Shown piece by piece: positions 4,143 to 63,856 of a stretch of DNA of 64,000 nt. Position numbers and translations under genes: made by a program. The notes under the pieces were generated by a model. That model was not told the DNA's origin and ran no database searches. It worked only from the letters and a program-made list of their open reading frames with translations. Each line of letters starts with the position of its first letter. The first letter of the stretch is position 1. Source of the DNA: a virus; the IMG/VR virus record IMGVR_UViG_3300044899_000017, positions 1 to 64,000 of that record; one strand, given 5' to 3'.

Positions 4143-4188
4143 TCATTCCGTTATCGTTCGGGCCTCTACCCGAGTCGAGGAGGACGAG
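4140..4188 (+). promoter_or_regulatory. early promoter/5'UTR cassette copy 1 (degenerate palindrome)
   Basis: TGATCATTCCGTTATCGT, TACCCGAG at 4167, GGAGG, ATG 4189. Confidence 0.75.
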
Positions 4189-6721: not shown

Positions 6722-6769
6722 CCCTGTTATCGTCGCGGGTCTACCCGAGCTGACCACGAGGAGGTCGCT
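6716..6769 (+). promoter_or_regulatory. early promoter/5'UTR cassette copy 2
   Basis: CGATAACCCTGTTATCGT, TACCCGAG at 6742, CACGAGGAGG, GTG 6770. Confidence 0.85.
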
Positions 6770-11064: not shown

Positions 11065-11113
11065 CGATAACTCTGTTATCGTTCGCGGTGTACCCGAGCT
11101 GTAGGAGGATGTC
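11065..11113 (+). promoter_or_regulatory. early promoter/5'UTR cassette copy 3
   Basis: CGATAACTCTGTTATCGT, TACCCGAGCTGTAGGAGGA at 11091, GTG 11114. Confidence 0.9.
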
Positions 11114-31520: not shown

Positions 31521-31639
31521 TGCCTTCGCTCGGGTACAGCTCGCCGCAGCCGCAGGACACGCGCTCGCGCGCAGGCCGGCCTCGCCGCGACCGGCGTGCG
31601 AACCGCGCGGCTCGCGCAGCGCGCCGGCGCAACCGCTGA
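31520..31639 (+). CDS. 39-aa Arg-rich peptide
   Basis: TGATG coupling; ends RAARAARRRNR. Confidence 0.5.
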   Translation: MPSLGYSSPQPQDTRSRAGRPRRDRRANRAARAARRRNR

Positions 31640-45138: not shown

Positions 45139-46569
45139 GTGGGCGAGTTCCGCATCTTCACGGGCGCCGGCGGGAAGCGGTTCGTCGGCGAGACGGGTCA
45201 GGGCGAGCTAGTCGAGCGCATCTCGCGCGCGGCGGGCGCTCCGATCAACTCGAACGCTCGCGATCAGGCGGCGGCGGGCCTGCTGCACTCCATCGGCCTT
45301 CACGCGCAGGCCGAAGTGATCATCCTCCACGCTCGCGGCGTGCCCGGCTTCGGGCCTGCGAACCCGGTGAACCGCTCGACGCACTGCCGGTTCAATGACG
45401 GCGCCGCGTACCGGCGCTTCGTCGCGGGCTTCAAGCTCGGCGTGCGCGGCCGCGGCGTGGACACGGCGAACACGCCGGCGTTCCTCGCCGAAGCGCATAA
45501 GCAGGGCCTCGCGTTCTTCCTGACCTACCCCGGCTCCGTCGGCGAGCGCCAGCACGTGAACGAGGCGACCTCGACGTGGGGGAAGCGGCTCGTGCCGCAG
45601 TTCCACGCCGCACCGGGCGACCGTGGCCGCAACGTCCGCCGGCTCCGGAACGTCCTCGTCGTCCTCGGGCTGCTCGACAAACGCGGCAGCGTCTTCGGCA
45701 CGAAGGTCGAGGCCGCGGTCCGCGTCTTTCAGTTGCACCACCACCTGAAGGTCGATGGCGTCGTCGGCCCGATGACGTGGGCGCAGCTCGTCGTCGCGTA
45801 CCGGCAGAAGAAGAAGCACCCGCCGAAGCCGCCGGCGCCGCATCCGCCGCACACGCATCCGCCGGCGCAGCCGATCCCGCATCAGCTTCATAAGGGCGTG
45901 GTGAACGGGCCGGACGTGTCCGAGCATCAGGGAGACGTGGACTGGCGGAAAGTGTCCGTCGGCATGAACGAGTTCGCCGGCGTCCGCGTGAACGACGGGG
46001 ACCACCGCGACTCGCGCTTCTCGAAGGCGCGGCTCGACTCGATGCGCGCGCAGCGGGTGATCCCGATGCCGTACGCGTACCTGCGGGTGGCGTCGCCGGG
46101 GAACGGCGAGCGCAACGGCGCGGCCGAGTGCGATATGACGCTCCGGTGGGCGCACGAGGCCGGGTGGGGGAAGCCCGGCGACCTACAGATAGCGGCCGAC
46201 TTCGAGGAGGCGAACGGGCAGTCGCTCCGGAAGGCCGGCGTGCATCTCGTGCAATGGGTCGCGCGCTACCACGACCGGACCGGCGCGTGGCCGACGCTCT
46301 ACAGCTCGCCGGCGTTCCTCGCCGCGGTGATGGCGACGCTGAGTCCGCAGGCGCGGGCGATGCTCGCGAAGTGCCCGCTGTGGATCGCGCACGTCGGGCC
46401 GGGCGGGAAGCCGCGCACGGCGAAGCCGACGGTGCCGCGGCCGTGGAAGCGGTACACCTTCTGGCAGTTCTCGTGGGTCGGGCGGCAGCCGGGAATCTCG
46501 ACGCCGTGCGATATGTCCATCTTCAACGGGTCGTTTAGCGCACTGCTGCGACTCACCATCCGGAGGTAG
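45139..46569 (+). CDS. endolysin: M15-like peptidase + PG_binding_1 + GH25 muramidase
   Basis: ANPVNRSTH...GVD...ERQH; AVRVFQ..HHLKVDGVVGP.TW; DVSEHQG.VDW..DFE..LWIA..FWQFS. Confidence 0.9.
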   Translation: MGEFRIFTGAGGKRFVGETGQGELVERISRAAGAPINSNARDQAAAGLLHSIGLHAQAEVIILHARGVPGFGPANPVNRSTHCRFNDGAAYRRFVAGFKLGVRGRGVDTANTPAFLAEAHKQGLAFFLTYPGSVGERQHVNEATSTWGKRLVPQFHAAPGDRGRNVRRLRNVLVVLGLLDKRGSVFGTKVEAAVRVFQLHHHLKVDGVVGPMTWAQLVVAYRQKKKHPPKPPAPHPPHTHPPAQPIPHQLHKGVVNGPDVSEHQGDVDWRKVSVGMNEFAGVRVNDGDHRDSRFSKARLDSMRAQRVIPMPYAYLRVASPGNGERNGAAECDMTLRWAHEAGWGKPGDLQIAADFEEANGQSLRKAGVHLVQWVARYHDRTGAWPTLYSSPAFLAAVMATLSPQARAMLAKCPLWIAHVGPGGKPRTAKPTVPRPWKRYTFWQFSWVGRQPGISTPCDMSIFNGSFSALLRLTIRR

Positions 46570-46574
46570 CCGCT

Positions 46575-46925
46575 GTGTCTCCCCTGTCGAAGCTCTATCC
46601 GCTGCTCGAAGCAGCTCGCGCCGTCCTCGCCGCGCTCGCCGGCCTCGCTGCCGTCCTCGCGTCCTCGGGCGACCTCCTGCACCTTCCCGCCGGCGTGACG
46701 GGCGCGCTCGTCGCGTTCGTGGCGTATGTCGGGCAGCTCGGCATCCGCTCGAAGACGACGCCGTTCGCCGAGCCGGACACGTCGCAGGTGCCCGAGCTGG
46801 CGGACACGCCGGAGTTCGCTGCCGTGGCCGCGCCGCCGCAGCGTGCCGAGGCCGAGGAGCCGCCGGCGCGGAAGCGCGCGAGCCGCGCCGGAGCTGCGCG
46901 CTCGAAGTCTTCGCGCTCGCGCTGA
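46575..46925 (+). CDS. holin-like membrane protein
   Basis: two TM segments, basic C-terminus, follows endolysin. Confidence 0.7.
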   Translation: MSPLSKLYPLLEAARAVLAALAGLAAVLASSGDLLHLPAGVTGALVAFVAYVGQLGIRSKTTPFAEPDTSQVPELADTPEFAAVAAPPQRAEAEEPPARKRASRAGAARSKSSRSR

Positions 46926-46964
46926 TCCGGGGCTTCCACCTGCGCGAGCGGGTACGATTGCGGC

Positions 46965-47062
46965 CGACGGTAATCGTCGATCCTCGTGCGGCTCGGGTAA
47001 AGCAGCGCGACCGGCGAGCTGTCGAACGAAGGCGGGTCTTCACGGCCCGCCTTCGTCGTTCT
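46965..47062 (+). ncRNA. candidate trans-acting antisense sRNA against early 5'UTRs
   Basis: GGCTTC-N16-TACGAT promoter (46931-46958); 5' hairpin 46965-46979; core TCCTCGTGCGGCTCGGGTA 46981-46999; hairpin 47008-47024; terminator 47026-47062. Confidence 0.7.
47026..47062 (+). terminator. intrinsic terminator
   Basis: ACGAAGGCGGGTC-TTCAC-GGCCCGCCTTCGT 13-bp stem, then CGTTCT. Confidence 0.8.
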
Positions 47063-47100
47063 CGGAGGGGAATCGCGGCCGCGCTCGAAGGGATGCCGAC

Positions 47101-47151
47101 CGATGCCGAACGTATCGTCGCCGCATCGTCACCCGAGCCGCAGGAGGAACC
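47101..47151 (+). promoter_or_regulatory. early promoter/5'UTR cassette copy 5 (degenerate)
   Basis: CGATGCCGAACGTATCGT, CACCCGAGCCGCAGGAGGA at 47130, GTG 47152. Confidence 0.7.
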
Positions 47152-48501
47152 GTGGGAGCAGCAGACGCAGGGACCGCGCTAGACACGATCCCGGAGGAGG
47201 AGCGTAACCTCCGGGGCCTCGAACTCGCCGAGCAGCACTTCCCGCCGGAGCGCCGAGCGCAGGTCGCCGCGTTTCTCGAAGTGCCCGCGGAGTCGCCGGC
47301 GCTGCTGCCGTTCCTCGCGTGGTGCGCTGCGAACCGGTACTCGCCGATAGCCGGCCACGTGTGGCTGATCCCGAAGAAGATCAAGGCGAAGGACGGCGAG
47401 CCGGAGCGGACGATCTACAAGCCGGCGGTGGGGCGCGACGGGCTGCTGCACAAAGCTCGCGAGTCGAAGGGCAAGCCGAACGGCTACCGCGGCCTGAAGT
47501 TCGGCGTCGTCTGCGAGCGCGACACGTTCGAGGTCGAGGAGGACGGCTCGATGGACGGGCCGAAGATTCTCCACCGCTACGCGTCGAAGCCGACGGAGTT
47601 CGCGCCGGACGAGTCGCCGGACCGCTACCGCGGCCGCGTGATCGGCGCGTGGGCGAAGTGCTTCGTGGACGGCGAGCCGCCGACGTTCTACTTCGCCAAC
47701 CTGCGCGAGCATGGCCGGCTGCGGCACGTGTGGGACTACAACCCGAACGAACACTCGCGGAAGCCGATCTACCTCGACGCCGAGGGGAAGAAGACGTGGG
47801 CAGAGTTCGGCGAGGGCGGGATGCGGAACCGGCCTCTTCAGGAGTGGGAGGGCGCGTGGGAGTACCTGTCCACGATGATCCTGAAGGCGGCGCAGTCGTA
47901 CGTGCTGCGGATCGCGCTCGGGATCACGGGCATCGTGCCGGTGGACGAGCTGCGCGACGTGACCTCGTGGAAGGAAGGCGACACGGGCGCGGCCGTCGAG
48001 ACGGGCGTGATGGCTGCACCCGAGGCCGAGTTCGACTTCGACGTGCTGACCGCTGACGAGGAGCTGCGCGAGCGGCTGCGCCACGCGGTCGAGACGGCGA
48101 ACGAGCAGGAGCCGTTCGCGTGGGGGCCGGCGAAGTGCGAGATGGTGCTGTCGGGCCGCACGGACGACGAGCTGCGGACCTTCGTCGAGCAGATCGAGCG
48201 CGAGAACGACCTGCGCGAGCAGCGCATCGCGAAGGCGGCTGGCGAGGAGCCGGTCGTGGACGCCGAGGTCGTCGAGGAGGAGCCGGAGGAGGAGAAGCCC
48301 GCCGGCGCCGGCGTGTCGATCACCGCGGCGGCGCTCGACGTGGGGGACCGCGTGTGGCGCGGCGAGACGCTGCGCGTCGTGACGGTGAAGGAACGCGACG
48401 GCGACACGGTGACGCTCGGCTTCGAGGGCGAGGACGAGCCGGTGACGGTCCCGTCCGGGGAGGGCTTCATGGTCGTGCAGGGCGGCGCCGGCGGGAGCTA
48501 G
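47152..48501 (+). CDS. RecT/Bet-like ssDNA annealing protein
   Basis: FL.WC....SP....VWLIP...VGRDGL...V.E.DTF...IGAWA...W....TM..K.A....LR.A.GI.G....DE. Confidence 0.85.
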   Translation: MGAADAGTALDTIPEEERNLRGLELAEQHFPPERRAQVAAFLEVPAESPALLPFLAWCAANRYSPIAGHVWLIPKKIKAKDGEPERTIYKPAVGRDGLLHKARESKGKPNGYRGLKFGVVCERDTFEVEEDGSMDGPKILHRYASKPTEFAPDESPDRYRGRVIGAWAKCFVDGEPPTFYFANLREHGRLRHVWDYNPNEHSRKPIYLDAEGKKTWAEFGEGGMRNRPLQEWEGAWEYLSTMILKAAQSYVLRIALGITGIVPVDELRDVTSWKEGDTGAAVETGVMAAPEAEFDFDVLTADEELRERLRHAVETANEQEPFAWGPAKCEMVLSGRTDDELRTFVEQIERENDLREQRIAKAAGEEPVVDAEVVEEEPEEEKPAGAGVSITAAALDVGDRVWRGETLRVVTVKERDGDTVTLGFEGEDEPVTVPSGEGFMVVQGGAGGS

Positions 48502-48679: not shown

Positions 48680-50062
48680 ATGAACGAAGCGAAGGTCGGG
48701 CGCATAGATCGCGTCGCCGTCAGGCGGTGGATCGAAGAGAAGGAAGAGCTGCCGCTCGACGCGGTGATGGGGATGTTCCCGACGATGCGGCAGTCGCTCC
48801 TCGCGAAGCACGACGACTGCGCGCTGTCCTCGTTCTTCGAGCTGCGCTACGCGAACGGGTGGAACACGCACCCGCAGGCGCGGGGCACGGTCTTCCATCT
48901 CTTCGCGGCGAAGTTCCTGCAAGAGCTGCGCGAGCAGAAGAAGAAGACGCTGCCGGTCGGCGTCGCCGAGGCGATCCTCGTCGAAGCGTGCCGGCAGCGC
49001 GAGGACTCGCAGGGCCGGCCGATCCCGCCGGAGGACATCGTGCGCGTGCCGCTGCGCTCGATGCCGGAGCTGCGGGGGGCGGCGCGGAAGTTCGCGAAGG
49101 ACAACGAGTTCTCTTACGACCGGATCGTGGACATCGAGCGGCGGCTAGGCGCCGAACTCGTCTACCCGAGCGCCGACGGCCGGCTCGTGAAGCGGTGGCT
49201 GACGGGGCAGCTCGACGCGGTGCTTTTCGAGAAGCCGGACGGCGCCGTGGTGATCGACTGGAAGGACACGTGGGCGCTGCCGCCGGAGCCGAAGGAACGC
49301 GACCCGGAGGACTTCGTGGGGGCCGACGACGAGCTGCGCGGCATCTCGTACCACGGCTACTTCCAGCAGCGCTTTTACGGGTGGCTGGTGATGAAGACCT
49401 ATCGCAACGTGAACCGCGTCACGCTGCGCGAGTTCTACGCGCGGAAGACGAAGGCGCGGAAGGCGACGCTGACTCGTGACCGGCTGCCCGAGGTCGAGGA
49501 AGAGCTAGGGCTGCTCGCCGCGGCGTTCGACGAGGCGATCATGCAGGGTCCGCCCGAGTGGCCGTACATCATCGACGAGCAGGAGGCCGAGGCGCGCGGC
49601 GTGAAGCCGCTCGGGCGGTGGGCGCCGCAGCCGGGGAAGCACTGCGGCTTCTGCGCGATGTCGCGCCACTGCCCGGTCGAAGAGGACGCGCGGATCGAGT
49701 CGGCCGCGCAGACCGGCGGCGCCGCGATCACGTCGTTCGAGCAGGCGAAGCGGGCGACGGGCGAACTTCAGGTCGTCGAGCGGGTGCGTGCGGTGCTGCT
49801 GTCGGCGCTGAAGTCGTACGTCGAGACGAGCGGCGCTCCCGTGCCCGTGAAGGCGGGCAAGGGCCGGCGAGTCCTCGGGTGGTACGAGACGAAGCGCGGC
49901 CGGCGGTTCGGCCTCTTCACGCCGGACGACTCCGACCGCGGTGGGCACGCCGACCTCGACCGCCAGCTCGAAGAGGCGATGCGCGAGGCGACCGCGCGAG
50001 CGCAGGAGGCGAAGCCGAAGCGCCGGCGCTCGGGCCGCAACCGGCCGGCCGGGAAGGTATGA
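48680..50062 (+). CDS. PD-(D/E)xK RecB/Cas4-like exonuclease
   Basis: GTVFH, E, GQLDAV, IDWK, Q..FY; N-terminal Cys plus C-terminal CxxCxxxxxC. Confidence 0.85.
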   Translation: MNEAKVGRIDRVAVRRWIEEKEELPLDAVMGMFPTMRQSLLAKHDDCALSSFFELRYANGWNTHPQARGTVFHLFAAKFLQELREQKKKTLPVGVAEAILVEACRQREDSQGRPIPPEDIVRVPLRSMPELRGAARKFAKDNEFSYDRIVDIERRLGAELVYPSADGRLVKRWLTGQLDAVLFEKPDGAVVIDWKDTWALPPEPKERDPEDFVGADDELRGISYHGYFQQRFYGWLVMKTYRNVNRVTLREFYARKTKARKATLTRDRLPEVEEELGLLAAAFDEAIMQGPPEWPYIIDEQEAEARGVKPLGRWAPQPGKHCGFCAMSRHCPVEEDARIESAAQTGGAAITSFEQAKRATGELQVVERVRAVLLSALKSYVETSGAPVPVKAGKGRRVLGWYETKRGRRFGLFTPDDSDRGGHADLDRQLEEAMREATARAQEAKPKRRRSGRNRPAGKV

Positions 50063-55674: not shown

Positions 55675-55916
55675 TGCCGACGGACTACGGCACGCTGCAC
55701 ACGGTGGCCGATTACGAGGAGGCCGCGAGCAGCGTGCCGGGCGTGCTGCACGTCCGGGTGCGCGCGGCCGCGAACGATCCCCGGATGCCGCGCGGCGTCG
55801 TCGAGGTCCGCGCTCGTGGACCGTGGCGCCGGCGGCTGTCGAAGGCGGTCGAGATGCAGCTCCGCACGGCGCTCGTCGAGCGCCACCCGATAGGCGTCGA
55901 GCTGCGGCTGAAGTAG
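55674..55916 (+). CDS. hypothetical protein
   Basis: DYEEAA..VPGV...PIGV; resembles a fragment of baseplate J. Confidence 0.6.
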   Translation: MPTDYGTLHTVADYEEAASSVPGVLHVRVRAAANDPRMPRGVVEVRARGPWRRRLSKAVEMQLRTALVERHPIGVELRLK

Positions 55917-55948
55917 TTCCGTCCGGGCTGCGCGGTGTACTCCGCGCC

Positions 55949-55975
55949 ATGCCCGAGCCGACCCGGCGCGCGTAA
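55949..55975 (+). CDS. 8-aa leaderless uORF (MPEPTRRA) coupled to ATPase
   Basis: TGTACT-N7-ATG; TAATG overlap with ATPase start. Confidence 0.45.
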   Translation: MPEPTRRA

Positions 55976-57813
55976 TGTCGCCGGCAGAGATTTACCTCGC
56001 GAAGTCCGGAAGCCGCCGCGGCGCCACGCTGCCGGCCGATTCGGTCACTCGGACGTTCGGCATCTTCGGCGTGAAGGACTCGGGCAAGTCCACCACGGCG
56101 CGCACGCTCGCCGAGGGCGTCGTGAAGCTCGGCGGGCACGTCGTGATCCTCGACCCGGTGGGCGTGTGGTGGGGCATCACGCGCCGCGGCGAGGGGCCGG
56201 GCCTGCCGGGCATCGTGATCGGCGGCGAGCATGGGGACGTGCCGCTAGAGAAGGAAGGCGGCGCGCTCGTCGCGGAGTTCGTGGTGGGCCGGCATTACCC
56301 GGTCGTCGTGATTGACACGATGCTGCTGCGGAAGGGCGCGCGGCTCGCGTTCCTCGCCGACTTCCTCGAAGGCGTCTACCACTCGAACCGGCGTCCGCTT
56401 CAGCTCGTGTTCGAGGAGGCGGACGAGGCGCTGCCGCAGTCGCCGCGGGGCATGAACCCGACGCTCGGGCGCGTGCTGGGCGCGGCCGAGGACATCGTGA
56501 AGAAGGGCCGCTCGCGCGGCCTCGGCTCGACGTTCATCTCGCAGCGGTTCGCCACGGTGACGAAGAACGTCACGACGCAGGTCGAGTGCCTGATCCTCCA
56601 CGCGCAGCCGGCGCCGCAGGATCAGAAGGCGGTGAAGGAATGGGTCGCGACGAACGGCGACACGCGCGTCACGGACCGCGTGATGGCGTCGATGGCGTCG
56701 CTCGATGTCGGCGAGGCATGGCTGTACTCGCCGAAGTGGCTGAAGCTGCTCGCGCAGATTCGCGTGCGGAAGCCGAAGACGCTCGACTCGTCCTCGACGC
56801 CGACGGACGACGAGCGCGAGCTAGACGAGCAGGCGCCGCGCGCGCCGGTCGATAAGGCCGAGCTGGCGCGGCAGATGTCGGAGGTCGTCGAGCGCGCGAA
56901 GGGTAAGGACCCGGCCGAGCTGAAGAAGCGGATCGCCGAACTCGAAGCGCAGCTCGCAGACGTGAAGCCCGAGGTCGTCGAGGTCGCCGGCGAGCGGGTG
57001 ATCGTGCCGGACGCCGAGACGGTGCGGGAGTTGGCCGAGTCCGTGGAGGTCTTCGCGGACGCCGCGCAGGCGATCACGGACTCCGTGGAACACCTGCTGT
57101 CCGAGGCCGAGGGGCTAGATAGGCGGATCACCCGAGCCGAGGAGACGCGCCGCGAAGTCGTGGACGCGCTCGCGGCCGCGCGGGCGACGCTCGACGAGCT
57201 GAAGGGCATCCCGGCCGAGGGCGTGCCCGTCACGCCGGCGCCGCGCGCTGCGCCAGCTCCGCGGCCTCGTGCCGCCGCGGCGTCGAACGGGAAGCCCGCA
57301 GCGCCGGCGGGCGATGCCGAGGACGTGTCGCCGGGCGCGCTGAAGCTGCTCGACGAGATGCGCGAGGTGTACCCCCTACGGTTGAACCGTATTCAGCTCG
57401 CGACGATCCTCGGGCGGGGGAAGAAGTCCTCGACGCTGACGCAGCAGCTCGCCGAGCTGAAGGACGCGGACCTGATCCGGGAGGACGGCTCGAAGCTGCT
57501 GTCGGCGGTCGTCACGGGCGCGCAGGCCGAGATGTCGAAGGGCGAGCTGATCGACCGGTGGCGCTCGGCGCTGCCCGAGGGTCCGCTCGCGCTGCTCGAC
57601 GTGCTGCTCGGACTGCCCGGCGGCGGCGGCATCGGGAAGGACGACCTCTTCGTGCAGGCGGGCTTCTCGGCCACGTCCTCGACGCCGGTCGGGCACCTGA
57701 AGATGCTGAAGGACAATGGGCTGGCATTCGAGCCGCAGAAGAAGGTCGTGATGCTCGGGCCGGCGCTCGCCGATCAGGAGGCGGACCCGCGGGGAGCTGC
57801 GACCGTCCGATAA
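55975..57813 (+). CDS. HerA/FtsK-superfamily ATPase (DUF87-like) with coiled coil and C-terminal wHTH-like repeats
   Basis: GVKDSGKS, ILDPVG, LVFEEAD, GRSRG, SQR. Confidence 0.85.
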   Translation: MSPAEIYLAKSGSRRGATLPADSVTRTFGIFGVKDSGKSTTARTLAEGVVKLGGHVVILDPVGVWWGITRRGEGPGLPGIVIGGEHGDVPLEKEGGALVAEFVVGRHYPVVVIDTMLLRKGARLAFLADFLEGVYHSNRRPLQLVFEEADEALPQSPRGMNPTLGRVLGAAEDIVKKGRSRGLGSTFISQRFATVTKNVTTQVECLILHAQPAPQDQKAVKEWVATNGDTRVTDRVMASMASLDVGEAWLYSPKWLKLLAQIRVRKPKTLDSSSTPTDDERELDEQAPRAPVDKAELARQMSEVVERAKGKDPAELKKRIAELEAQLADVKPEVVEVAGERVIVPDAETVRELAESVEVFADAAQAITDSVEHLLSEAEGLDRRITRAEETRREVVDALAAARATLDELKGIPAEGVPVTPAPRAAPAPRPRAAAASNGKPAAPAGDAEDVSPGALKLLDEMREVYPLRLNRIQLATILGRGKKSSTLTQQLAELKDADLIREDGSKLLSAVVTGAQAEMSKGELIDRWRSALPEGPLALLDVLLGLPGGGGIGKDDLFVQAGFSATSSTPVGHLKMLKDNGLAFEPQKKVVMLGPALADQEADPRGAATVR

Positions 57814-57865
57814 CCCTGTTATCGTGCCGTCCACCCGAGTCATTCGATCACGAGGAGACGGCGAG
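57808..57865 (+). promoter_or_regulatory. early promoter/5'UTR cassette copy 8
   Basis: CGATAACCCTGTTATCGT, CACCCGAG at 57832, CACGAGGAG, ATG 57866. Confidence 0.85.
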
Positions 57866-58909
57866 ATGGCGGAAGCAGCGAAGCGGAGCAGCGCGAACAC
57901 GGACCTCTACATCGGCACGATGAAGGTCCCGGTGGGCCTCTTCGGCACGATGGCGTCGCCGGCGAAAGAGCAGAAGTTCGACACGGCCGGACCGAACGGC
58001 GGGAAGCTGAAGTACGAGCAGCGCGCCGTGATCGCCGAGCAGGAGTCGGACGTGGCCGACGAGCCGGACGCGCCCGTGCAGTCCGACCCGCTCGCGACGA
58101 GCGATCCCGGCTCGGACGCGCCGGCGCTCGCCGATACCGTCGAGCGTGCCGAGGCGCGCTCGGCCGAGCTGCGGCAGGCTGCCGATGTCGGCCGGAAGAT
58201 GATGGACTCCGGACCGGGGACGCTCGTGCCCGGCGAGTTCCGGCAGGTACTCGTCGAGGAAGGCTCCGGCGAGGTCGTCGAGGCCGAGGACGTGCGCCGC
58301 GGCGTGCGGCTCGAAGACGGCCGCTTCATCGACGTAACGGAGCAGGTGACGGCCATCGACACGCGCACGAAGCTCGACCGGATCGAGATTCTGCGGTGCG
58401 TGGACTCGACGCAGATCAGGCGCGAGCGTGTGATCGGCGCTTACTACGTCGGCGCGCAGGAGACGGAGGGCCTGCCGTACCTGCGGCTGCTCTTCGAGGC
58501 GCTGAAGAAGCGGCGCGAGGTCGCCGTCGTGAAGTACACGACGAAGAGCCGGCAGAACCTCGGCGTGATCAGCGCGAACGCGAAGACCGGCACGCTGATC
58601 CTGAACTCGCTCGTCTTCGCCGAGGACTGGCGCGAGCCGCCGGCGAAGGCGCTCGGCATCGCAAAGGTGCAGGTCGCGGAGTCGCAGGTCGAGCAGATGG
58701 CCGAGCTGCTGTCCGTGATGCACGGCCACGTGGACGACGTGGACGCGCTCCGCGACGACGCGATAGCGCTGCGCGAGGAGCTGCGCGCGCGTGCCGAGGC
58801 GGGCGAGATGGCCGAGGTCGTCGAGCCGATGCCGGCGGCGGACGCGGTGCCGGACCTCGAAGGCGCGCTCGCCGCGTCGCTCGAAGCGGTCCGTGCGGGC
58901 AAGGTCTAG
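57866..58909 (+). CDS. ku: Ku-like DNA end-binding protein
   Basis: VPVGLF...VRRGV.....FI.V...IEI...V...I......YY...LLFEAL.....AV.K...L.FAE..R; DL..AL.ASL tail. Confidence 0.85.
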   Translation: MAEAAKRSSANTDLYIGTMKVPVGLFGTMASPAKEQKFDTAGPNGGKLKYEQRAVIAEQESDVADEPDAPVQSDPLATSDPGSDAPALADTVERAEARSAELRQAADVGRKMMDSGPGTLVPGEFRQVLVEEGSGEVVEAEDVRRGVRLEDGRFIDVTEQVTAIDTRTKLDRIEILRCVDSTQIRRERVIGAYYVGAQETEGLPYLRLLFEALKKRREVAVVKYTTKSRQNLGVISANAKTGTLILNSLVFAEDWREPPAKALGIAKVQVAESQVEQMAELLSVMHGHVDDVDALRDDAIALREELRARAEAGEMAEVVEPMPAADAVPDLEGALAASLEAVRAGKV

Positions 58910-59817: not shown

Positions 59818-59996
59818 TGCTGGTCGCGATCCTGATCGGCTGCGCGCCGATGGCGCTCGCGGACGGCGACGTGTGGGGGTGCGTGGGCATCCTCGGCGTC
59901 GTCGCCGTGATCGCGTGGGCGCGCAGCGGCGGGGGGCCGAGACTCCCGCGGATACCGTGGCGCGTGTCGTGGCCGGGTGGGCGCTGGCGCGGGTGA
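59817..59996 (+). CDS. small membrane protein
   Basis: TAGTG overlap; hydrophobic. Confidence 0.55.
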   Translation: MLVAILIGCAPMALADGDVWGCVGILGVVAVIAWARSGGGPRLPRIPWRVSWPGGRWRG

Positions 59997-62628: not shown

Positions 62629-62685
62629 CGATAACTCTGTTATCGTGCCGTGTGTACCCGAGCTGCACGACCTGAGGAGGTCGCG
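62629..62685 (+). promoter_or_regulatory. early promoter/5'UTR cassette copy 10
   Basis: CGATAACTCTGTTATCGT, TACCCGAGCTGCACGA at 62655, GAGGAGG, ATG 62686. Confidence 0.9.
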
Positions 62686-63741
62686 ATGTCCACCACCACT
62701 AGCACTTCCCACACGTACGCGGTAGGCGACCGCGTTCGCATCCTGAAGCCGGGCGAGGAGGGCGAGGGGCAGATCACCTTCGTCTCCGACGACGGCGCGC
62801 CGGCGAGCCTCGAAGTCTCCCGGCACTTCGCCGGCGGGCTGTGGCTGCGACCCGATCAGGTCGAGCTGATCACGCCGGCGCCCGAGGTTCAGAAGACGGA
62901 GGCCGGCGAAGACGGCATCCGCGCGGAGAAGGTGCTGATCACGGAGCGGAACGCCGGCGGGCAGTGCGTGCGCGAGGTCGTGGTCGAGCGGATCACGGAG
63001 GACGGCTCGATCCGGCAGACGACGGTCCGCGAGGTCGAGTACGACACGGAGACGGCGACCGCGAAGTGGGAGACGCCGCGCGCTGTCTCGCCGGACCGCG
63101 CGACCGCGTACATCGAGGAGTGCTACGAGCGCGAGCTGCTGACGCGGCCCGGGGAGGAGCTGATCATGCCGACGATGTTCGACGAGATTCGGAGCCGTCA
63201 CGCGACGGAGCAGGACGCGGCGCGCGAGCTGGGCCGCGGGCTGATGCGCGGCGACCGCGCCAGCTTCAAGCTCGGGTGGTCGTGGGAGAACTCGGCGCTC
63301 GCCGCCATCGACGCGTACACGCTCGACGACGACGACATCGCGGAGCTGCGCTGCTACCTGCTCGGCTATGCGGTCGGGCTGTCCGCCGGCGGCGGCGACG
63401 AGATGGGCGAGCGGATGCTCGCGCGGCTGCCGCAGCCGGAGGAGTTCCGCGCGGCGTACACGACCGGGAAGCACGACGGCCGGCAGGAGCAGGTCGGCGT
63501 GACCTACCCGGACGTGATCGAGACGGCCGCGGCGCGGCGCCAGCGCGAGCGCGAAGAGCTGCTGACGATGCGCGAGTGCGGCTGCGGCGCGACGACGGAG
63601 GGCGAATGCTGCGCCGCGGTGGAGGGCTACTTCACGTCGCTCGGGCAGCGCTCCGAACACGAGCTGCGCGAGCTGCACGAGGGCGACGGCTGCGAGGCCG
63701 CGCGCATCCTCCTCGTGAAGCGCGCGGGGCGGGACTCCTAA
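62686..63741 (+). CDS. hypothetical protein (N-terminal KOW/SH3-like)
   Basis: YAVGDRVRIL..G.EG.I; SD. Confidence 0.8.
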   Translation: MSTTTSTSHTYAVGDRVRILKPGEEGEGQITFVSDDGAPASLEVSRHFAGGLWLRPDQVELITPAPEVQKTEAGEDGIRAEKVLITERNAGGQCVREVVVERITEDGSIRQTTVREVEYDTETATAKWETPRAVSPDRATAYIEECYERELLTRPGEELIMPTMFDEIRSRHATEQDAARELGRGLMRGDRASFKLGWSWENSALAAIDAYTLDDDDIAELRCYLLGYAVGLSAGGGDEMGERMLARLPQPEEFRAAYTTGKHDGRQEQVGVTYPDVIETAAARRQREREELLTMRECGCGATTEGECCAAVEGYFTSLGQRSEHELRELHEGDGCEAARILLVKRAGRDS

Positions 63742-63813
63742 CGAAACTTCGGCTCGGGTACAGCGACCGAAGGCGTGACCGGCCGGCTCCTCGTGGCCGG
63801 CCGGTCCGCAGCC

Positions 63814-63856
63814 TAAGATCGCGCCACCCGAGCTGTAGGAATCCGAGGATCGAGCG
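63814..63856 (+). promoter_or_regulatory. cassette copy 11 (-10 and box, no palindrome)
   Basis: TAAGAT-N6-ACCCGAGCTGTAGGA...GAGGA-ATG 63857. Confidence 0.65.

Follow-up and report, generated by a model that had tools for sequence, protein, structure and literature searches.

A small, structured, terminator-ended module (46931–47062) separates the lysis genes from the RecT operon in an uncultivated phage that probably comes from soil, and it is probably an RNA regulator of one operon. The window analyzed here comprises bases 1–64,000 of a 77,780-bp IMG/VR virus record (IMGVR_UViG_3300044899_000017), which has a 127-bp terminal repeat and 72% G+C, and nearly all of its plausible genes lie on the plus strand. 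The sole sequencing run holding this phage DNA is a soil metagenome. Nucleotide and protein searches among GenBank phages returned no relative. A RecT profile recovered one related IMG/VR virus record of 86,185 bp (RecT 64% identical), which is syntenic over most genes, with protein identities of 35 to 88%, and which carries the same promoter cassette and leader box as described below. The conservation evidence comes from this one relative, so every covariation counts as a single event. Single-query searches of IMG/VR with RecT and a 965-aa neighboring protein found nothing, cassette patterns in the same collection gave nothing or lone chance palindromes, and a RecT profile and a tail-protein profile recovered no relative beyond the one. 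The anti-leader pattern, searched in IMG/VR, JGI metagenomes, and GTDB genomes, matched that relative and otherwise gave chance matches, and the RecT profile found nothing in metagenome and genome collections. Logan assemblies contained ∼50 RecT homologs at 43–71% identity.

A structured module before the RecT gene

The stop codon of the putative holin gene at 46925 is followed by a 226-nt gap up to the RecT gene. The features of this region are as follows.

45139–46569: endolysin with GH25 and peptidoglycan-binding (PG-binding) assignments from Pfam and PHROG searches; a minor tail protein gene is also nearby
46575–46925, plus strand: putative holin of 116 aa with two hydrophobic segments and a basic tail, directly after the endolysin, closing the late/lysis block
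46931–46936, plus strand: weak −35-like hexamer GGCTTC, agreeing with the late-class −35 GGKATC at 4/6 positions
46953–46958, plus strand: −10-like hexamer TACGAT, preceded by GGG, 16 nt after GGCTTC and aligned with GGGTATCAT of the relative
46966–47024, plus strand: long imperfect hairpin in the minimum-energy fold, the body of a putative ∼95-nt RNA
46981–46999, plus strand: 19-nt anti-leader core, found by sequence comparison as the reverse complement of box, spacer, and Shine-Dalgarno sequence (SD)
46994–47000, plus strand: apical loop CGGGUAA, candidate seed, unpaired probability 0.99, identical in the relative
47026–47056, plus strand: intrinsic terminator from the fold, 13-bp stem and 5-nt loop (arms 47026–47036 and 47046–47056), kept in the relative
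47102–47118, plus strand: RecT promoter, a degenerate operator palindrome with −10 TATCGT; the −10-to-box distance is 12 nt versus 9 in the consensus cassette
47130–47148, plus strand: RecT leader (box, spacer, SD), the best partner of the core (17/19, 12 contiguous)
47152–48501, plus strand: gene for a RecT-family annealing protein (Pfam PF03837; PHROGs)
48680–50062, plus strand: PD-(D/E)XK exonuclease gene downstream of RecT (Pfam PF12705; PHROGs)

The putative holin had no match in Pfam or PHROG. Genes for a HerA-like ATPase and a Ku-domain protein lie in the early region near the RecT and exonuclease genes (55912–58909). An earlier note on this DNA had described a complete small transcription unit between the holin stop and the recombinase gene, and its hexamers, core, and 13-bp terminator were all recovered in place.

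The module is kept at the same site before RecT in the relative, even though by tblastn neither the endolysin nor the putative holin upstream of it has a detectable homolog there. The lysis cassette was apparently replaced while the regulatory element beside it stayed in place. A block that runs past the 3′ end of the core (46983–47003) is identical to the relative at 20 of 21 positions, as compared to ∼70% for the region as a whole. The GGGTA..AT block is aligned between the two phages, with TATCAT in the relative versus TACGAT here. The terminator is kept through compensatory changes and has a clear U-tract in the relative. Alignment gaps of 2, 3, and 1 nt relative to the related phage break the reading frame, and a coding reading was therefore rejected. 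A discrete, selected RNA module is supported, with −10-like hexamer, hairpin, and terminator retained where the flanking lysis genes have no detectable homolog, and from the aligned sequences it appears clearly to be under selective constraint. A reading of the reversed copy as a gene or promoter on the minus strand was rejected: its SD has no start codon in reach, and no −10 lies upstream. Rfam searches of the whole window at gathering scores matched no family, and at 46900–47200 yielded chance-level matches only (13–16 bits versus thresholds of 42–123).

When folded as a 98-nt RNA, the module forms a single long imperfect hairpin followed by the terminator (z = −4.8; minimum-energy fold frequency 0.54). 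The core had previously been taken to be an unpaired 19-nt segment, preceded by a small 5′ hairpin. That picture is not borne out, as the small hairpin is absent from the minimum-energy fold and the middle of the core is paired both in the 98-nt fold and in the ensemble, where UCGUGC and GCU have unpaired probabilities below 0.1. The free parts of the core are UCC (unpaired probability 0.96–0.99) and the apical loop CGGGUA(A) (0.99). A consensus fold with the relative retains the hairpin with the loop CGGGUAA invariant, changes the closing pair from G–C to A–U, and contains nine of 29 pairs altered on both sides. In the single-sequence fold of the relative, the anti-box is mostly paired; the consensus fold keeps the loop.

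The promoter of the module had been classed with those of the structural genes. These late promoters form a genuine class, GGKATC-16 nt-TANNNT, with six copies in the window versus 0.04 expected (14847, 20548, 22927, 23707, 29245, and 42896; another at 74199 lies beyond the window). Each of the two phages has seven copies per genome, in matching places, always on the plus strand and usually 7–10 nt before a start codon, a placement which suggests leaderless or near-leaderless mRNAs. The module fits this class poorly, in that its −35 agrees at 4/6 positions and is not conserved (3/6 in the relative), and the −10 of the relative is of the early type. The late-promoter assignment of the module is accordingly weak as judged from these hexamers. 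TAnnAT is itself rare, with nine occurrences on the plus strand of the 77.8-kb genome. A scan with the sigma-70 consensus found no site at the module.

The early leader tag and its predicted pairing with the module

Approximately 11 plus-strand sites carry a common cassette of palindrome/−10, box, SD, and start codon. Its order is a 7+7 palindrome (3-nt spacer, the right arm being the TATCGT −10), ∼9 nt, the box ACCCGAG(C), 2–20 nt, and the SD. The box 8-mer ACCCGAGC is enriched (28 occurrences versus 6.0 expected). Because its distance from the −10 is fixed while its distance from the SD ranges over 2–20 nt, the box appears linked to the promoter or 5′ end rather than positioned with respect to the ribosome-binding site (RBS); the previous proposal, in which conservation of the box reflects its role as seed target of the RNA, is not supported by this spacing. 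In the relative, early cassettes have a clear −35 (TTGCAC or TTGACG) 17–18 nt before TATCAT or TATCGT (e.g., 81667–81700, 82735–82765, and 85759–85790), consistent with early cassettes being host sigma-A-type promoters with the palindrome as an operator in the spacer. The −35 hexamers of the early cassettes in the present phage are weaker than those of the relative. As transcription usually starts ∼7 nt after the −10, the box would lie at or beside the mRNA 5′ end. The RecT cassette is atypical in both phages (47102–47137; 9935–9975 in the relative), with a degenerate palindrome and −10-to-box distances of 12 and 16 nt.

The core had been reported as complementary to the leaders of eleven early genes, and the match counts reproduce for all tagged leaders that were listed. 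The leader at 11091 pairs at 18/19 positions (16 Watson–Crick and two G·U), those at 47130 (RecT) and 54129 at 17/19 each, and that at 62655 through 16 contiguous matches, while the leader at 6742 can pair along the entire core if a 2-nt bulge is allowed. Those at 57832 and 61721 combine the box with an exact CACGAGGA block; those at 4167, 13861, 55241, and 63825 combine the box with a generic SD. Ungapped matches of at least 16/19 occur in four of the eleven leaders alone. The SD is covered by complementarity without gaps in 47130, 11091, and 54129, and with the 2-nt bulge in 6742. Perfect inverted repeats of at least 11 nt within 200 nt are about as common in shuffled sequence (30 versus 25 in shuffles), so the significance of the complementarity rests on its conservation in the relative and not on the match alone.

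In both phages, no leader other than the adjacent one of RecT is a perfect Watson–Crick partner of the core (12 nt here and 11 nt in the relative). The match includes position 9, at which the RecT leader carries C in both phages as against T in the family consensus. Box position 8 is C in the RecT leader of this phage and T in that of the relative, and the anti-leader correspondingly has G versus A; this one compensatory change, G to A in the anti-leader matching C to T in the box, is of the kind anticipated for seed and box in related genomes. The anti-SD part of the relative fits the RecT SD poorly, requiring a 3–4-nt bulge, which argues that box pairing is conserved and SD occlusion not clearly so.

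Raw duplex energies provided no discrimination in this GC-rich genome. When gene starts were ordered by the net binding energy of co-folds, the RecT leader came second among 96 here and first among 103 in the relative. Ranks for the remaining tagged leaders were 1, 3, 4, 6, 7, 12, 14, 32, 55, and 58 of 96 in this phage, and 3, 16, 21, 25, 27, and 102 of 103 in the relative. Where the earlier note expected the cassette leaders at the top, eight fall within the first 14 and three rank 32, 55, and 58. That all eleven early operons are targets, as the earlier note had inferred, is not supported, given that the sole perfect partner in both phages is the adjacent RecT leader and that the other leaders of the relative rank from 3 to 102. 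The perfect RecT match, the ranks, and the atypical RecT cassettes together point to the RecT–exonuclease operon as the primary target, with others as possible secondary ones.

We consider it an even proposition that the module specifies a discrete anti-leader RNA aimed mainly at the RecT–exonuclease operon, acting both as a ∼95-nt RNA in trans and, upon terminator read-through, in cis. The transcription of this RNA, its timing, its pairing in vivo, and the resulting repression are what we infer from the sequence elements, predicted folds, conservation, and compensatory change described above. An RNA of ∼95 nt (about 46966–47060) would be produced from its own −10 or as the 3′-terminal portion of the transcript from the lysis genes. 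Its free loop CGGGUAA would touch the box at the 5′ end of RecT mRNA, and pairing would then extend via 12 contiguous base pairs into the SD (five more pairs, the contiguous anti-SD stretch of the core being 46981–46985), blocking ribosome binding. Any transcript continuing past the terminator could form this helix intramolecularly. The distance from the 46981–46999 arm to the RecT −10 downstream (47113–47118) is 114 nt. In the predicted fold of such a read-through RNA, the core pairs with the RecT box and SD at a probability of 0.99 in this phage, and with the RecT leader at just 0 to 0.2 in the relative. We propose from this helix that RecT and exonuclease would be translated only from mRNA of their own promoter; by this hypothesis, an anti-leader RNA at the late/early boundary would confine their translation to that source. 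Three or four tagged leaders (11091, 54129, 62655, and 6742) would be possible secondary targets. The conserved −10, a basal helix at the expected transcript start, and the canonical terminator favor a discrete RNA. The order of anti-leader, terminator, promoter, and leader also has the look of a read-through insulator, and the cis and trans modes are compatible.

A broader reading, in which one RNA, possibly helped by the second module described below, pairs with the shared 5′ tag and the SD throughout the early mRNAs, shutting down early translation late in infection, is unlikely in our estimation. It draws on the eight box leaders among the 14 best binders (ranks 1, 2, 3, 4, 6, 7, 12, and 14 with RecT included), on the four leaders matching at 16–18/19, and on three more that have the box with an exact CACGAGGA block. 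In the relative, the G-to-A change of the anti-leader also parallels a C-to-T change in the family consensus of that phage, and the RNA can pair with two leaders composed of box and CACGAGGAG (7 + 9 bp with a 3-nt bulge). However, the box is placed by the promoter, coding sites equal the leader matches (16–18/19) once G·U pairs are counted, and at position 9 the RNA of both phages fits RecT rather than the consensus of the family. The three low-ranking leaders here, the ranks of 16 to 102 for others in the relative, and the weak late-promoter assignment likewise speak against a global switch.

Further anti-box copies and alternative readings

A second element of related design was found in the window.

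63747–63806, plus strand: second anti-box module, a small anti-box hairpin followed by a GC hairpin (the terminator) whose loop is UCCUCGUG; the leader at 63826 comes shortly after

The anti-box hairpin of this module lies 10 nt past a stop codon, and its anti-box block resembles 46989–47015. A comparable second module is present in the relative at 85680–85733. Each of the two genomes contains twice a succession of anti-box, strong terminator hairpin, promoter, and box. In a full-length fold of the 1157-nt mRNA 62654–63810 (gene 62686–63741), the 5′ box and the 3′ anti-box are paired at a probability of 0.93, which could reflect pairing of the 5′ and 3′ ends. In a transcript reading past the second module, the anti-box is predicted to pair with the next box (0.99). 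The cis pairing probability for the second module of the relative is 0. A third anti-box (31529–31535) has flanks as at 63752 and lies 9 nt past the stop codon for the protein with the highest conservation (168 aa, 87% identity to the relative); it may fall inside a 39-codon Arg-rich open reading frame. The relative lacks this anti-box and has another small open reading frame in its place. With its anti-box and UCCUCGUG exposed in loops, the second module lends itself to the global switch considered above, and these copies are compatible both with such a switch and with a role at mRNA ends or in processing. It is unlikely, at about the level of the global switch itself, that the standard 5′ tag of the early mRNAs is read by phage anti-tag RNAs comprising the 46966–47060 unit and 3′ untranslated region hairpins such as 63747–63806.

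Somewhat less probable still is that the modules act through terminator-linked box/anti-box pairing on one RNA, affecting stability or RNase III-type cleavage rather than repressing RecT translation. The partner box would be that at the 5′ end of the same mRNA or, after read-through, that of the next leader, and the product a closed or processed RNA. The twofold recurrence of anti-box, terminator, promoter, and box in each phage fits such an arrangement, as do the predicted pairings within 62654–63810 and beyond it, and the SD is left uncovered in three of four modules. Nevertheless, a transcript ending at 47056 would come from late genes, whose promoters give no 5′ box, and the second module of the relative shows no cis pairing. 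The contiguous anti-SD stretch at 46981–46985 and the conserved −10 would also be left unexplained. Least probable is a DNA-level element (a site for a box-reading protein) or a functionless relic of a local inverted duplication: the fixed box/−10 spacing in cassettes and the extension of similarity among reversed copies 2–3 nt upstream of the box would suit it, but the 21-nt conservation takes in positions outside the cassette consensus, a stem pair is compensatory, the minus strand provides no promoter or gene, and a neutral relic is not expected at 20/21 identity amid ∼70%.

Relation to known regulatory RNAs and leader tags

Among known systems, the arrangement is reminiscent of the c4 antisense RNA of P1 and P7 and the CI RNA of satellite phage P4, which are small same-strand RNAs encoded upstream of the leader or RBS region that they target. 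Both arise by processing of the transcript of their operon and function in the immunity of temperate elements in Proteobacteria. Like them, the module is on the same strand as its putative target and upstream of it, and has short complementary stretches, predicted to lie in loops or unpaired regions, that would be directed at the leader of the downstream operon. In contrast, it has no sequence or structure similarity to them, and Rfam, which has a C4 family, gave no match. It also differs in being terminator-ended and placed at the boundary of a lysis block and a recombination operon in a high-GC phage, and in having a putative target that carries a tag common to ∼11 operons.

The cis mode resembles the fold-back of IS10, where a segment upstream of the start site of the transposase gene is complementary to the RBS, such that only transcripts entering from outside sequester it. 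As in IS10, the complementary arm lies upstream of RecT's own transcription start. Unlike IS10, a terminator and a conserved −10 accompany the upstream arm, and the cis fold is strongly predicted in one phage only. The trans mode resembles that of trans-encoded RBS-occluding small RNAs, which are ∼100 nt in length and consist of a stem-loop body with an intrinsic terminator, a short exposed seed, and complementarity to the SD region. The ∼95-nt size, the stem-loop and terminator, and the complementarity to the SD region are shared, whereas the module is phage-encoded, would be aimed at an operon of the same phage 130 nt downstream on the same strand, and has a partly buried seed. To our knowledge, phage regulatory RNAs directed at the phage's own genes have been described from a few model phages of Proteobacteria only. 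A literature search found no self-directed regulatory RNA for high-GC, actinobacteriophage-like lineages.

The closest parallel to the leader tag itself is the SAS/ESAS of Cluster K mycobacteriophages, a short standard tag at the starts of many non-structural genes, often with an upstream inverted repeat (PMC3203893). Whether SAS is read by an RNA or a protein was left open, and each of four named K1 phages has one reversed copy away from gene starts (PMC3203893). The function of SAS is still unverified (PMC12699233), and standard leader tags of this kind in actinobacteriophages have gone unexplained since 2011. SAS differs from the present box in overlapping the SD 3–7 nt from the start codon, as compared to a box tied to the −10 or 5′ end and 2–20 nt from the SD, and in that no pairing RNA has been shown for it. 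The 13-nt SAS consensus, allowing up to two mismatches, had no match in the window. Were the wider reading true, a role for a genome-wide 5′ tag would be shown, with RNA-based shut-off or stabilization of the early class, and the single reversed SAS copies of Cluster K1 mycobacteriophages would represent the same principle in a cultivable system. In Mycobacterium phage Anaya (JF704106), the reversed SAS (59870–59882) follows a terminator within the 385 nt of non-coding sequence that separate gp96 from gp97. This region is strongly structured (z = −4.5), with the anti-SD part predicted to be unpaired, and may be an analog of the anti-leader described here.
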